In this document: positions 12,893-16,514 of the stretch, piece after piece
How positions within the stretch are numbered: the stretch's first letter is position 1
How the letters are laid out: every line of letters starts with the position of its first letter
Source of the DNA: Mycobacteriales bacterium
GTDB lineage: Bacteria; Actinomycetota; Actinomycetes; JAFAQI01
Reading direction: 5' to 3'
DNA length: 64,000 bases
Assembly (NCBI GenBank): GCA_035504215.1
Contig: DATJSI010000050.1
Coordinates: forward strand, 8,340-72,339
Program-made: the position numbers and the translations under genes
The notes under the pieces: model-generated
Databases searched by the model: none
What the model saw: only the letters and a program-made list of their open reading frames with translations
Told to the model about the DNA's origin: nothing

Positions 12893-13196
12893 TCGCCGTT
12901 CTCCTCGTGCGTGCGGATGGTGCGGTTCGTATGTTTTTGCGCCGATATCCCCGACCCACGCGGTCGGGTGTGTCGCACGCTCCGCGCTCCGCCCGCGCCG
13001 ACCGGCGCGAGAATCTGCTCGGAGGGTCCCGACACCCGGCCCCGCACGTTCAGATGCCCGGCGCAATGAACTCCGGGCGCCGTCACCGTGCTGGTCACGA
13101 GCGTGTCGGGTTGCACGACACAGCGTCCGGATCGCTCCAGACACCGCGTGCCACACTAGCCGAGCGCGAACCGCCGGGTCAAAACCTGCCCGTTGG

Positions 13197-13223
13197 GGGT
13201 AGTGGGTCAGTTTGAGCGGGACG
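13197..13223. repeat. left terminal inverted repeat (IR-L) of the insertion
   Basis: GGGTAGTGGGTCAGTTTGAGCGGGACG; its exact reverse complement occurs at 16348-16374. Confidence 0.8.
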
Positions 13224-13262
13224 TTTCTGGCGATGCTTGACCGCTCACGCTAGCCTTGAAGC

Positions 13263-13415
13263 ATGGCCAAGACAGCAGTAGCGGCCGGCGACCCCGGTGA
13301 CTGGTTCGCGCTCATCCTGATCCTAATCTCGCTCGGCATCCTGCCTGGCAAGTGGAAGGGCACCGTATCGGGCGCGGCGACTCTGTACTGGATTTGGAAG
13401 AGGTTCGGCGAGTGA
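13263..13415 (+). CDS. 50-aa hydrophobic peptide with one predicted transmembrane helix (below ORF-track size cutoff)
   Basis: Hand translation MAKTAVAAGDPGDWFALILILISLGILPGKWKGTVSGAATLYWIWKRFGE. The TGA stop overlaps the GTG start of the next ORF (GAGTGA). Located just inside IR-L. Confidence 0.4.
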   Translation: MAKTAVAAGDPGDWFALILILISLGILPGKWKGTVSGAATLYWIWKRFGE

Positions 13416-13645
13416 CGCCGAAGCGTCCCCGTGACCTGAACCAGCTCGCGGCCAGGCTAGTCGAACTAGCCACCGATCCGGACGCCGAGGACACGCCCGA
13501 CACCGGCAAGGACCCAGCTGCGGTTAAGCTCGGACGACGGGGAGGGCTCAAAGGCGGCCGGGCCCGCGCCGACAAGCTCACCGCGGAGCAGCGCAGCGAG
13601 ATCGCCAGGAAGGCCTCCGCCGCTCGGTGGAAACGCGACCGCTAG
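13412..13645 (+). CDS. small basic protein (~77 aa) with C-terminal K/R-rich motif GGLKGGRARADKLTAEQRSEIARKASAARW; putative nucleic-acid-binding
   Basis: The in-frame ORF track starts at 13352. GTG at 13412 is preferred because a GGAAGAGG RBS lies 8 nt upstream and it is coupled to the preceding peptide stop. The C-terminal motif recurs in many small bacterial proteins (recalled from memory). Confidence 0.55.
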   Translation: MTPKRPRDLNQLAARLVELATDPDAEDTPDTGKDPAAVKLGRRGGLKGGRARADKLTAEQRSEIARKASAARWKRDR

Positions 13646-13694
13646 CGCTGGTAGCATCCCACCGATGTAATTCAATCCGGATGGGGGTGCCCGC

Positions 13695-14471
13695 GTGGCC
13701 AGGACCTCATCCGATGACGCGATTGACCTGCCCCTCCGCTATCCGACCTCTCTGATCCACGTTGACGAGAGCGGGTCACGCGCGAGCAGGGAGCAGTTCT
13801 TCGTTGTGGGCGCCGTCAAGGTCCGCGAGTCTGGCCAACTGGCTCGGACCATTCGTGACGTGCGCGACCGCAACAACTTCGAGGGCGAGTTCAGGTTCAG
13901 CACGATCTCGCGAGGGAAGCTGGCCGTCTACTACGACCTGATCGACCAGCTTGAGCAGTCGGACGCCCACTTCGCGGCGTGTGTGGTCGACCGAAGCACT
14001 GGGGCAGATCCCTTCGCGTCCTCCGTGCCGCCATGGCGGATTCACGCTCGGGTAACAGCGCAGCTCCTGCGAGCGTGCATCAATCGACGCGAGGTCGTAT
14101 CGGTGTTGCTCGATAGCATCTCGACCCCAAAGGGTTGCGCGCTTGACGACACAGTGCGCGGGATGGTCAACACCCAACTGGGACGCACTGCCGTCGTGAC
14201 GGCTGCGTGCCTCAACTCCAGGACCAATGATGGCTTGCAGGTGGCCGACCTCGTCGCGAGCGCCATCGCATTCGACCGCCGCAAGGGGTGCCTTACGAAG
14301 GACAAACACCCCAATTCACACAAAGCTAAGGTGGCAGCGCGCCTTGCCACCGCGTTCGGCATTAGCTCGTTCGATGACGTGCACACCGAACGGGTGAACA
14401 TCGCCACCTACCGCCGGCGAGCGCCTGTGCGGCTCGCCACAGTCGAAAAGATTCCGCGCCTGACTGGTTGA
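13695..14471 (+). CDS. DUF3800-family protein
   Basis: 258 aa. N-terminal LIHVDESG and C-terminal GLQVADLVASAI match the conserved DESG...QxADL signature of DUF3800 (recalled from memory). GTG start. A GGGGG purine tract lies upstream. Confidence 0.6.
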   Translation: MARTSSDDAIDLPLRYPTSLIHVDESGSRASREQFFVVGAVKVRESGQLARTIRDVRDRNNFEGEFRFSTISRGKLAVYYDLIDQLEQSDAHFAACVVDRSTGADPFASSVPPWRIHARVTAQLLRACINRREVVSVLLDSISTPKGCALDDTVRGMVNTQLGRTAVVTAACLNSRTNDGLQVADLVASAIAFDRRKGCLTKDKHPNSHKAKVAARLATAFGISSFDDVHTERVNIATYRRRAPVRLATVEKIPRLTG

Positions 14472-14717
14472 GATTTCTCCGATTCGGGCGATACTCTGTA
14501 TGTGCGGCTTGAGCTTCGGGCTCACATCTGCACGTTCGGGCTTGAGCTTCGGGCTCACGGCCCGGAGAACTAGGGCTTGTAACGGCCTCCCACAGACAAC
14601 AACGACGAAGCGTCTCGTCAGAACTGGCGGGGCGCTTCGTCGCGTCTGCGCGCCCCCACGCAACTGCGAACGCCAGGAGGTTGACTTTCCCTAAGCGGTC
14701 AAGCATAATGGTCAGTA

Positions 14718-15583
14718 TGAACAAGCTGAGTCCGGAGAAGCGAGCGCAGGTCATCGGCTGCCTGGTCGAAGGCATGAGCATCCGAGGCACCGTCCGGACC
14801 ACAGGAGTAGCCAAGAACACCATCGTCAAGCTGCTTGTCGACCTCGGCGACGTCTGCTCCTACGCGGCGAACGAACTGCTAGTCGACGTCGAAGCCAAGC
14901 GCGTCCAGTGCGACGAGATCTGGTCCTTTTGCTACTCCAAGCAGAAGAACGTCCCCGAGGACAAGATCGGTGAGTTCGGGTACGGCGACATCTGGACGTG
15001 GACCGCTATCGACGCCGACACGAAGCTCGTCATCAGCTACCTAGTCGGGGACCGTTCCAGCTACTCGGCGCATCGGCTCATGGAGGACGTGTCCTACCGG
15101 GTCACGGGCCGGATGCAGCTCACCACCGACGGGCACAACGCCTACCTGAACGCGGTCGAGGACACGTTCCACGGCGACATCGACTACGCGCAGCTCGTGA
15201 AGATCTACGACGCTCCCAGCGGCCAGGACAACGAGCGTCGCTATTCGCCGGCTGTCTGCACCGGAGCCGACAAGCGCCGGATCAACGGGCACCCGGACGA
15301 GAAGCACATCAGCACCAGCTACGTGGAGCGCCAGAACCTCACTATGCGGATGAGCATGCGCCGGTTCACCCGGCTCACGAACGCGTTCAGCAAGAAGGTG
15401 GAGAACCTCGCCGCCGCCGTGAGCCTGCACTTCGTGTATTACAACTTCGCTCGGCCGCACCAGACGCTCACGAAGGCGAACGGCGGACGCCCGACCACCC
15501 CGGCAATGGCGGCAGGAAAGGCGTCCCGAGTTTGGACACTTGCCGACATCGTGCGCCTTCTGGACTACCAACTGCCGGAGTGA
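14718..15583 (+). CDS. IS1-family (ISMhu11-like group) transposase, single ORF
   Basis: N-terminal HTH (MNKLSPEKRAQVIGCLVEGMSIRGTVRTTGVAKNTI). DDE region (QCDEIWSF, WTAIDADTKL, LTTDGHNAY). C-terminal ERQNLTMRMSMRRFTRLTNAFSKKVENLAAAVSLHFVYYNFARPHQTL, typical of actinobacterial IS1-family transposases. The ORF track starts at 14681. A TTGACT-17-CATAAT promoter suggests a leaderless start at the ATG near 14718. Confidence 0.7.
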
Positions 15584-15699
15584 CCGGCGAGCCTCCACCA
15601 TCCGAACGTGTGTTCGTCGTAACTTCCCAGGCATTGGAGCCCCGGCGCGGCTGCAACCGCCCGGGGCATGGACCCCATCTTGTAAGGAGATGAGGACGT

Positions 15700-15975
15700 A
15701 TGAGTAAAAGGATCGTCGCCGTCCGCAAGAGTCGGTACGGCCACGGCCACCTCACCGAGGCCGGTATCGGCACGGTTCACGGTCGCCCCGCCTACTGGGA
15801 AGGCGTCGACACGGTGCGAGCGAACCTGGCCTCGCAGACCTACTACACGGTGAGTCCGACGTCGGGAGCGGTGGCCTACGTCCATCGGGTCACCTGCGAG
15901 TGCGGCGTGAAGACCATCCAGACCGACGGCGACCGGTGGCGCGACAACAACCTGGACAACCTGCCCACCTACTGA
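15700..15975 (+). CDS. DUF3892-family small protein
   Basis: 91 aa MSKRIVAVRKSRYGHGHLTE...YYTVSP..AYVHRV...TDGDRWRDNNLDNLP, matching DUF3892 hallmarks (recalled). Strong SD AAGGAG 8 nt upstream. AT-rich leader. Confidence 0.55.
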   Translation: MSKRIVAVRKSRYGHGHLTEAGIGTVHGRPAYWEGVDTVRANLASQTYYTVSPTSGAVAYVHRVTCECGVKTIQTDGDRWRDNNLDNLPTY

Positions 15976-16298
15976 TCAAGGTCCGGCACGATGGACAACG
16001 ACTGGAGTCGTGGCATTTCCGGTCGCGGCTTCAGTTCGTCCTCAGCGCGGTCGGGGAAGGCTGCGTATCCCATCGCGACCGCGATGCAGTCCGCGATGAA
16101 CGGCACCACGTGCTCAGCGGTTCCGACGGGCAGCTCGATTGCGATCCTGTCGTCCAGCGCCAGATAGATCTGTCCCCCCGGTTGCGGCGTCGCCGACAGG
16201 TAGGGGACGCGCCGCCCGCGCAGCACGACCGCGTGCGCCCGGAACGGGCCGATGAACTCCAGGTCGCTAAGCGCCGGGAGGTCAGAGTCGACGCTCAT
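15969..16298 (-). CDS. hypothetical protein (109 aa), convergent with and overlapping the DUF3892 gene by 7 nt
   Basis: ORF MSVDSDLPALSDLEFIGPFRAHAVVLRGRR.... An AT-rich promoter-like region (TCATTAT, ATGTAATTC motif) lies immediately upstream, inside IR-R. No recognisable family. Confidence 0.4.
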   Translation of the reverse strand: MSVDSDLPALSDLEFIGPFRAHAVVLRGRRVPYLSATPQPGGQIYLALDDRIAIELPVGTAEHVVPFIADCIAVAMGYAAFPDRAEDELKPRPEMPRLQSLSIVPDLDQ

Positions 16299-16347
16299 CG
16301 GCGCGATAATGACATCAATGTAATTCGATCCTTGGGTCCGACGCGCC

Positions 16348-16374
16348 CGTCCCGCTCAAACTGACCCACTACCC
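16348..16374. repeat. right terminal inverted repeat (IR-R) of the insertion
   Basis: CGTCCCGCTCAAACTGACCCACTACCC, the reverse complement of 13197-13223. The first mismatch is at the outermost flanking base. Confidence 0.8.
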
Positions 16375-16514
16375 GAACCCGCGGCCGGGCCTTGACCGCG
16401 GCGTACGCCGAGCTCGAGCGGCCCGCCGGGCCAGTGGGCGGCAGGTCCCCTAGCCGAGCGCGGCCAGGCCGCCGCTTGAGCCGGTGGTGGTGTGGGCAAC
16501 GACCAGCGTGACGA

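Follow-up and report, generated by a model that had tools for sequence, protein, structure and literature searches.

The window, by which we mean the whole 64,000-nucleotide stretch of DNA analyzed here, carries an IS1-family element bounded by perfect 27-bp inverted repeats (IRs). The G+C content is 63.7% for the element and 68.8% for the window, rather than the approximately 70% given in the original prediction. From left to right, the element encodes a 50-aa membrane-like open reading frame (ORF), a small basic ORF, a DUF3800 protein, the transposase, a DUF3892 protein, and a 109-aa ORF, with these positions in the window:

13197 to 13223, + strand, IR-L of the IS1-family element
13412 to 13645, + strand, small basic ORF (77 aa, counted from the GTG), one of the core genes of the family; the DNA upstream of the first -10-like hexamer described below comes from the 3' end of this ORF
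13695 to 14471, + strand, DUF3800 gene, 258 aa (Pfam PF12686, E = 2.7e-8; PADLOC PDC-M04A, E = 1.8e-16)
14717 to 15583, + strand, IS1-family transposase gene, with a leaderless-type promoter (TTGACT-17-CATAAT, 7 nt, ATG)
15700 to 15975, DUF3892 gene
15969 to 16298, - strand, 109-aa ORF of unassigned function; its start adjoins the second motif copy on the opposite strand, and it has an 82% identical orthologue in the related element L169
16348 to 16374, - strand, IR-R of the IS1-family element

Relative to the related element L002, window positions 13263 to 13415 reflect an insertion of about 150 nt just past the start codon of the small basic gene. This insert creates the 50-aa membrane-like ORF, whose TGA overlaps the small basic GTG at 13412 (GTGA).

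Within this element, we found two copies of a 14-mer, ATGTAATTC[A/G]ATCC (pattern ATGTAATTCRATCC), both on the + strand, and no third copy of the pattern with up to 2 mismatches in the 64 kb. Each copy follows a -10-like hexamer:

13652 to 13657, + strand, -10-like hexamer TAGCAT, 7 nt upstream of copy 1
13665 to 13678, + strand, motif copy 1, ATGTAATTCAATCC, predicted to form +1 to +14 of the DUF3800 mRNA and opening with ATG-TAA, in a layout kept in DUF3800 orthologues
13679 to 13694, + strand, predicted remainder of the DUF3800 leader, with the Shine-Dalgarno-like tract GGATGGGGGTG
16305 to 16310, + strand, -10-like hexamer GATAAT, 7 nt upstream of copy 2
16318 to 16331, + strand, motif copy 2, ATGTAATTCGATCC, an orphan that reads toward IR-R, within a segment (16300 to 16347) with no homology in L169

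The original prediction had recorded both copies, placing each one base too low (13664 to 13677 and 16317 to 16330), and had put both 18 nt from a gene start. By our measurement, 19 nt separate the small basic ORF stop (13645) from the start of copy 1, and 16 nt lie between the end of that copy and the DUF3800 GTG (13695). For copy 2, the distance is 19 nt to the ATG of the minus-strand 109-aa ORF (16298) on one side and 16 nt to the inner edge of IR-R (16348) on the other. Each copy therefore sits inside a 49-nt spacer at identical offsets. The copies form a direct repeat, with opposite orientations relative to their adjoining genes, a point that the original prediction did not mention. Identity between them is 13/14 within the 14-mer, 6/13 at positions -13 to -1, 9/19 over the upstream 19 nt, and 4/16 downstream; the likeness reaches 19 nt only weakly (CAYCRATGTAATTCRATCC, 16/19). 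We also considered a CRP-like TGTGA-N6-TCACA site, but on reading the sequence the second half-site is missing.

How often such a pair arises by chance was estimated from the composition of the window itself. It contains 276 14-mers with at least 9 A/T, and only one pair of these matches with at most 1 mismatch within 5 kb. In 300 trials in which the sequence was shuffled within 14- to 50-nt blocks, so that AT islands were preserved, an AT-rich pair appeared somewhere in the window in 1.3 to 2.7% of shuffles and inside the element in 0 to 1%. A pattern-specific shuffle test gave 0/100, a post hoc figure that overstates the signal. The 14-mer pair is thus probably not due to chance, as had been proposed, although the statistics alone are moderate rather than overwhelming. 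If the resemblance were coincidental, copy 1 would be part of the DUF3800 promoter and copy 2 would resemble it as an AT-rich promoter region. The window-wide probability of about 1 to 3% still carries some weight when 64 kb have been inspected by eye, and related elements contain 0 to 2 comparable pairs each at a looser cutoff (at least 7 A/T). However, the -10-like hexamer at the same 7-nt offset would have to be a second, independent coincidence besides the 13/14 match, and in 383 kb of other high-GC loci the AT-rich pairs are nearly all real features (IRs, tandem arrays, and palindromes). We consider coincidence very unlikely.

Over 2.5 Mb of searched strands, the 14-mer has 18 matches with at most 2 mismatches, nine of them representing one homologous site, and about 16 would be expected by chance (a hand estimate under a uniform-composition model). 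A transposase-gene remnant was suggested by a likeness to codons for VEGNSIR (L011, 14/14 with GTAATTCAATCCGG), and we rejected it, as the likeness does not extend past 14 nt and there is no protein-level similarity. At homologous sites in low-GC relatives (L011 5054 and L111 5054), the VEGNSIR codons read GAAGGTAATTCAATCCG, which is near the 14-mer and was judged coincidental. Nor are the copies a target-site duplication or the ends of a nested insert, since the DNA that they bracket includes the core transposase gene and the DUF3892/109-aa block common to L169.

To place the motif within the element family, we compared seven related elements found via transposase homologues of 79 to 85% amino acid identity (L002, L003, L165, L166, L167, L168, and L169). 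All seven have 16-bp IR tips identical to those of the window element (GGTAGTGGGTCAGTTT) and transposases 75 to 85% identical to its transposase, and the small basic gene, or recognizable homology to it, is present in 7/7. Target-site duplications of 8 bp are clear in all of the relatives except L168 (7 bp plus an ambiguous eighth base). The cargo on either side of the transposase gene is quite different among them; L169 has its right-hand cargo in common with the window, namely, the DUF3892 gene and the 109-aa protein. The 14-mer, searched at up to 3 to 4 mismatches, is absent from all seven. Elsewhere, the plasmid database gave distant transposase matches only, with no closer copy of the element; in genome and metagenome scans with the transposase, relatives among the matches listed were 53 to 64% identical.

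The distribution of the motif bears directly on the proposals that it is a subterminal binding site for the transposase or an operator for the small basic protein. The position of copy 2 near IR-R, 43 nt from the tip, would suit the former, and that of copy 1 immediately after the small basic gene would suit the latter. A core function would travel with the core, and both readings are removed by the absence of the motif from seven elements that carry the same IR tips, similar transposases, and the small protein. In addition, the copies are direct rather than inverted, and their distances from the tips are asymmetric (468 nt for copy 1). We therefore regard a transposase or small-protein site as extremely improbable. 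Since it is missing from the related elements, the motif belongs to the cargo and not to the core transposon, and most likely the repeated 14-mer is an ordinary cargo-gene feature, to judge from these comparisons, and not a transposase or element-regulator site.

In six genomes, elements of this family occupy one orthologous position: upstream of rpsL there is a conserved GGTCAAAA, and the element lies 12 to 13 nt beyond it, with IR-L facing rpsL. In five of these genomes the element has an intact duplication of its own (8 bp, or 7 bp plus an ambiguous base in L168), and the window copy has none: positions 13189 to 13196 read CCGTTGGG and positions 16375 to 16382 read CGAACCCG. A further relative, L165, sits between tuf and rpsJ, with the duplication GGTCAACG. 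Element coordinates are as follows:

window, 13197 to 16374
L003, 2931 to 6791
L166, 1422 to 7366
L167, 3331 to 6953
L168, 3438 to 6350
L169, 436 to 4342
L165, 3126 to 5894

Cargo in the family includes Fic, SocA/Panacea, HTH-M78 with ParE/Phd, STAND/AAA ATPases, a methylase-Mrr fusion, and DUF3800. From its sequence, the family resembles a transposon that targets one specific site, a hotspot in a ribosomal operon, and swaps its cargo. In L003, L166, and a JGI contig of 10,489 nt, genes for a 185- to 190-aa ORF and a UDG lie between the element and a DUF4190 gene; the right flank of the window element (to 16450) lacks both, which suggests a deletion adjacent to the IS on the IR-R side.

Several other repeats were observed in or near these elements. 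At L169 412 to 451, two elements lie in tandem, IR-R to IR-L, with a single 8-bp duplication copy between them (GTGATCTT), and the same GTGATCTT 8-mer follows the second L169 element. A 13-mer, CTAGCCGAGCGCG, occurs in both flanks of the window element (13157 to 13169 and 16452 to 16464); the left CTAGCCGAGCGCG is part of the conserved rpsL-upstream sequence in all relatives, and the right copy overlaps the stop of a DUF4190-like ORF. Two distant relatives have AT-rich repeats beside the transposase gene: an array of approximately 20-nt units (AAACATTGTTTGA) after it in L033 (5896 to 6013) and a duplicated TTGACATCWTACTTGAC before it in L123 (4830 to 4971).

Housekeeping (SigA-type) promoters of actinobacteria have a -10 hexamer of the form TAnnnT, and transcription starts 6 to 8 nt downstream of it. 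At copy 1, the order of features is TAGCAT, cccaccg, ATGTAATTCAATCC, the Shine-Dalgarno-like tract, and GTG; at copy 2, it is GATAAT, gacatca, and ATGTAATTCGATCC. Both hexamers have A at position 2 and T at position 6 and lie exactly 7 nt upstream of the 14-mer. Matches to a -35 hexamer are weak at both copies (TGGAAA and GTCAGA), and a simple sigma-70 consensus scan called neither site; the cassettes of L178 and L186, described below, have a good -35 match (TTGGCA-18-TAAAGT). The same geometry is found at the genes of the element that lack a Shine-Dalgarno sequence, with CATAAT-7-ATG at the transposase gene, CATTAT-7-ATG at the 109-aa ORF, and TAGCCT-6-ATG at the left-end ORF.

We then compared the DNA upstream of DUF3800 orthologues in five independent cassettes from sites outside an IS context. 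The L177 cassette reads TAGAGT tccaccg CTGTAAGTAACC; L178 to L182 and L186/L187, which represent two different neighborhoods, read TTGGCA-18-TAAAGT ccac[cg]c TTGTAATTAGAC; gp30 of Gordonia phage Suerte is preceded by TAGAAT cacacag ATGTGATCAGG; and the viral contig L188, the one useful locus from viral-contig scans with DUF3800, reads TACGGT tacacgg ATGTAGTTCC. The consensus layout ahead of the orthologues is TAnnnT, 6 to 7 nt that include CAC, and then NTG followed by a stop codon. The alignment columns without variation are the "CA" in the spacer and "TGT". Purine-rich tracts like GGATGGGGGTG also precede the start codon in L177, L178, L186, Suerte, and L188. In contrast, the DUF3800 orthologue of L173 to L176 does not have this layout, which, together with the weak -35 regions and the limit of five independent cassettes, counts against a promoter reading. 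We know of no earlier description of a promoter and leader consensus for DUF3800 genes.

The pairs of start and stop codons were ATG-TAA (twice), ATG-TGA, ATG-TAG, TTG-TAA (twice), and CTG-TAA, so that the NTG is ATG in 4/7 sequences and TTG or CTG in the other 3/7, with all three stop codons represented. A T followed by two purines is a stop codon in three of four cases anyway, and conservation of the stop codon is statistically not decisive. L178 and L186 have in common a block of about 1 kb that runs from the -35 hexamer through the gene to approximately 160 nt past its stop, and because this homology begins at the -35 hexamer, the DUF3800 promoter appears to move with its gene as part of the cassette.

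Since the same layout precedes orthologues at unrelated sites, we read copy 1 as the DUF3800 cassette's own promoter and the start of its leader. The orthologue layout and the -10/ATG geometry of the genes lacking a Shine-Dalgarno sequence lead us to place the 14-mer at the very start of the transcript, as its first 14 bases. On this evidence we somewhat favor the view that the 14-mer belongs to a promoter and 5'-leader module of the DUF3800 cargo, as the portion nearest the start site (+1 to +14), and not to the transposon core. A shared promoter element had been one of the functions originally suggested, and this idea holds up in part: it suits copy 1, which lies 7 nt past a -10-like hexamer in a layout kept ahead of orthologues; copy 2 has this layout too but points away from the 109-aa ORF. 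For the same reason, the description of the motif as upstream of two cargo genes, if taken to mean that it serves each of them, is not supported.

Under the promoter-leader reading, a housekeeping-type RNA polymerase would start at, or 1 to 2 nt from, the A of the ATG (13665). The resulting DUF3800 leader would be about 30 nt long, and its first six bases would be a start codon and then a stop codon. Loading of ribosomes by such a 5' start-stop is possible, and we mention it as a lead only. For leaderless initiation in mycobacteria, a 5'-terminal ATG or GTG on the mRNA is both required and sufficient (PMC4633059). Copy 1 resembles SigA-dependent leaderless and short-leader genes in its A2/T6 hexamer, 7-nt spacing, and ATG, a geometry shared by the transposase gene; it is unlike them in that a stop codon directly follows the ATG and DUF3800 starts about 30 nt farther on, behind a Shine-Dalgarno-like tract. 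In Escherichia coli, 5'-terminal AUGs on mRNAs led by Shine-Dalgarno sequences (5'-uAUG) bind ribosomes and can either increase or decrease expression of the gene downstream (Beck et al. 2016, PMC4965119); a retapamulin Ribo-seq study has described start-stop mini-ORFs (bioRxiv 10.1101/520783). As in these cases, the predicted mRNA would have a 5'-terminal AUG as well as a Shine-Dalgarno-led coding sequence; the differences are that those cases come from E. coli and that the codon here is NTG, with TTG or CTG in three of seven sequences.

Conserved RNA motifs have also been associated with DUF3800 genes (DUF3800-I to XI), and UAA is frequent in them (Weinberg et al. 2017, PMC5737381). Like those motifs, the 14-mer is conserved noncoding sequence tied to DUF3800 genes, and it contains UGUAAU. 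Unlike them, it has no significant structure, as folds of both copies with their flanks were no better than those of shuffles (z of -1.4 to +0.6), and an Rfam search of the 14-mer region that included the DUF3800-I to XI covariance models gave no match at E values up to 5 to 10.

Copy 2 is harder to account for. It points rightward through IR-R, and the flanking gene is convergent; with no gene downstream, a function for this copy is not evident. The nucleotide homology between L169 and window positions 14692 to 16299 stops exactly at the ATG of the 109-aa ORF, so copy 2 lies in a 49-nt spacer that is unique to the window element. Upstream of the L169 orthologue of the 109-aa gene, the DNA is unrelated and the motif was not found, another point against a promoter reading. 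A blastn search of the copy-2 spacer against phages returned chance-level matches only.

The AT block of copy 2 can also be read on the minus strand, as CATTAT (16311 to 16306) 7 nt upstream of the 109-aa ATG, and CATTAT-7-ATG is a probable leaderless promoter of that ORF. Because the same block probably provides the -10 hexamer of the 109-aa gene, the site is arranged like a bidirectional promoter, with divergent starts predicted at 16298 and 16318. Bidirectional bacterial promoters that arise from symmetry of the -10 element have been described (Warman et al. 2021, via PMC10268837; PMC12825309). The block GATAATG at copy 2 indeed reads as a -10 hexamer on both strands, but the predicted starts are 20 bp apart, compared with the usual 18. 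When the upstream sequences of the two copies are set side by side, a simple duplicated promoter fails to predict that the transcribed 14 nt are more alike (13/14) than the -10 region (6/13). Outward-facing or junction promoters are known at the ends of IS elements, such as IS2, IS30, and IS911. Copy 2 is like these in being promoter-like, just inside IR-R, and pointed outward; it is unlike them in being cargo derived, absent from sister elements, and next to a convergent flanking gene, with no obvious target. Overall, the motif would appear to work like an ordinary actinobacterial promoter-proximal cargo element, outside the IS-end and operator classes tested.

Because the 14-mer is better kept between the copies than the -10 region is, two other explanations stay alive. 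In one, the copies are the footprint of a recombination or duplication during gain or rearrangement of cargo, and copy 2 has no present function; for example, a DUF3800 cassette that was once beside IR-R may have left a promoter stub. Both copies lie just inside the borders of variable DNA (copy 1 at 19 nt from the core small ORF, copy 2 at 16 nt from IR-R), in 49-nt spacers with the same offsets, and the L169 homology breaks exactly at 16299. The window element is also rearranged, having neither a target-site duplication nor the neighbor genes of its relatives, and copy 2 lacks a downstream gene. However, the likeness between the copies ends by about 27 nt, the core transposase gene lies between them, so that the repeats bracket no simple insert, and no analogous boundary repeats were found in the seven related elements. 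Such a footprint is possible if unlikely.

In the other explanation, the 14- to 19-mer is an operator for a trans-acting regulator of host or cargo origin. By occupying the DUF3800 start site and positions -20 to -33 relative to the 109-aa ORF, this regulator would coregulate both modules. Repressor sites commonly overlap start sites. The peak of identity in the 14-mer (13/14) between drifted flanks (9/19 and 4/16) fits selection on a binding site, and part of the sequence (CAC...TGTAAT) is kept in the orthologous cassettes as well. Against this, the dyad symmetry of the motif is weak (8/12 positions around AATT, read from the sequence), DUF3892 and the 109-aa gene occur together in L169 with no copy of the motif, and elements that lack the motif nevertheless keep the small basic protein, which excludes that protein. 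Fold, PDB, and Pfam searches did not find a DNA-binding protein among the cargo. The 109-aa protein was tried as a cognate regulator and set aside: its AlphaFold model (pLDDT of 74.6) is a beta-sheet with one helix, and Foldseek gave no PDB match at E < 0.7. PDB sequence searches with the DUF3892, 109-aa, and small basic proteins were uninformative, and the DUF3892 and 109-aa proteins had no informative Pfam match to a DNA-binding domain. We regard an operator as rather unlikely.

Returning to the promoter-leader reading, we infer from sequence the promoter use of the hexamers, the start positions, start-stop translation, and the origin of copy 2, whether by duplication or as a remnant of cassette capture. 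A more elaborate and quite unlikely version of this reading would give the DUF3800 cassettes of actinobacteria and phages a conserved leaderless 5'-NUG-stop at the mRNA 5' end. Ribosomes or a regulator would be loaded there, and this would gate expression of an RNase H-like defense protein that may be toxic. Copy 2 at IR-R would then act as an outward or bidirectional promoter, for example, across the IR-R/IR-L junction in tandem or circular forms.

That a transposon cargo gene probably brought its own promoter matters little by itself. More generally, a short AT-rich repeat in a mobile element of high GC content can point to the promoter of a cargo module rather than to a site of transposition, and the motif helps to draw the borders of the cargo cassette. 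Two other features of the locus have more potential, namely, the fixed insertion upstream of rpsL with swapped, defense-like cargo and a two-hairpin element that accompanies actinobacterial and actinophage DUF3800 genes. The latter lies downstream of DUF3800, after a second predicted promoter:

14468 to 14495, + strand, predicted second cassette promoter, TTGAGA-16-GATACT, kept as TTGAGA/TTGAGG-GATAAT in L178 and L186
14502 to 14566, + strand, two tandem hairpins, with repeat units at 14506 to 14525 and 14539 to 14558 and the invariant core GAGCTTCGGGCTC

Counterparts of the hairpins are found in L178 (2231 to 2340), L186 (3266 to 3375), L183 (3371 to 3423), and phage Dori (NC_023703, 42608 to 42671), so the element is kept in phages Suerte and Dori. 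Across 5 sequences, compensatory changes are seen at nine predicted pairs, including the lower stems. The two-hairpin element had no match in Rfam, and a scan for the tandem-hairpin pattern returned the contig of L188 and one false positive. A plausible reading is that it adds one more RNA associated with DUF3800 to those cataloged by Weinberg et al. (PMC5737381).

DUF3800 has been assigned to a family with an RNase H-like fold (PMC10910872, PMC7736814), and from its sequence the gene is a candidate defense gene. The lysogeny region of a phage is a typical place for defense genes expressed from prophages. As a separate observation, DUF3800 genes of actinophages lie in the lysogeny region by the integrase gene in L183 (Suerte gp30), L184 (Dori gp47), and L185 (Powerball gp40). 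The Dori gene directly follows gp48, annotated as a hypothetical protein, and the Powerball gene comes directly after the annotated immunity repressor, gp41.
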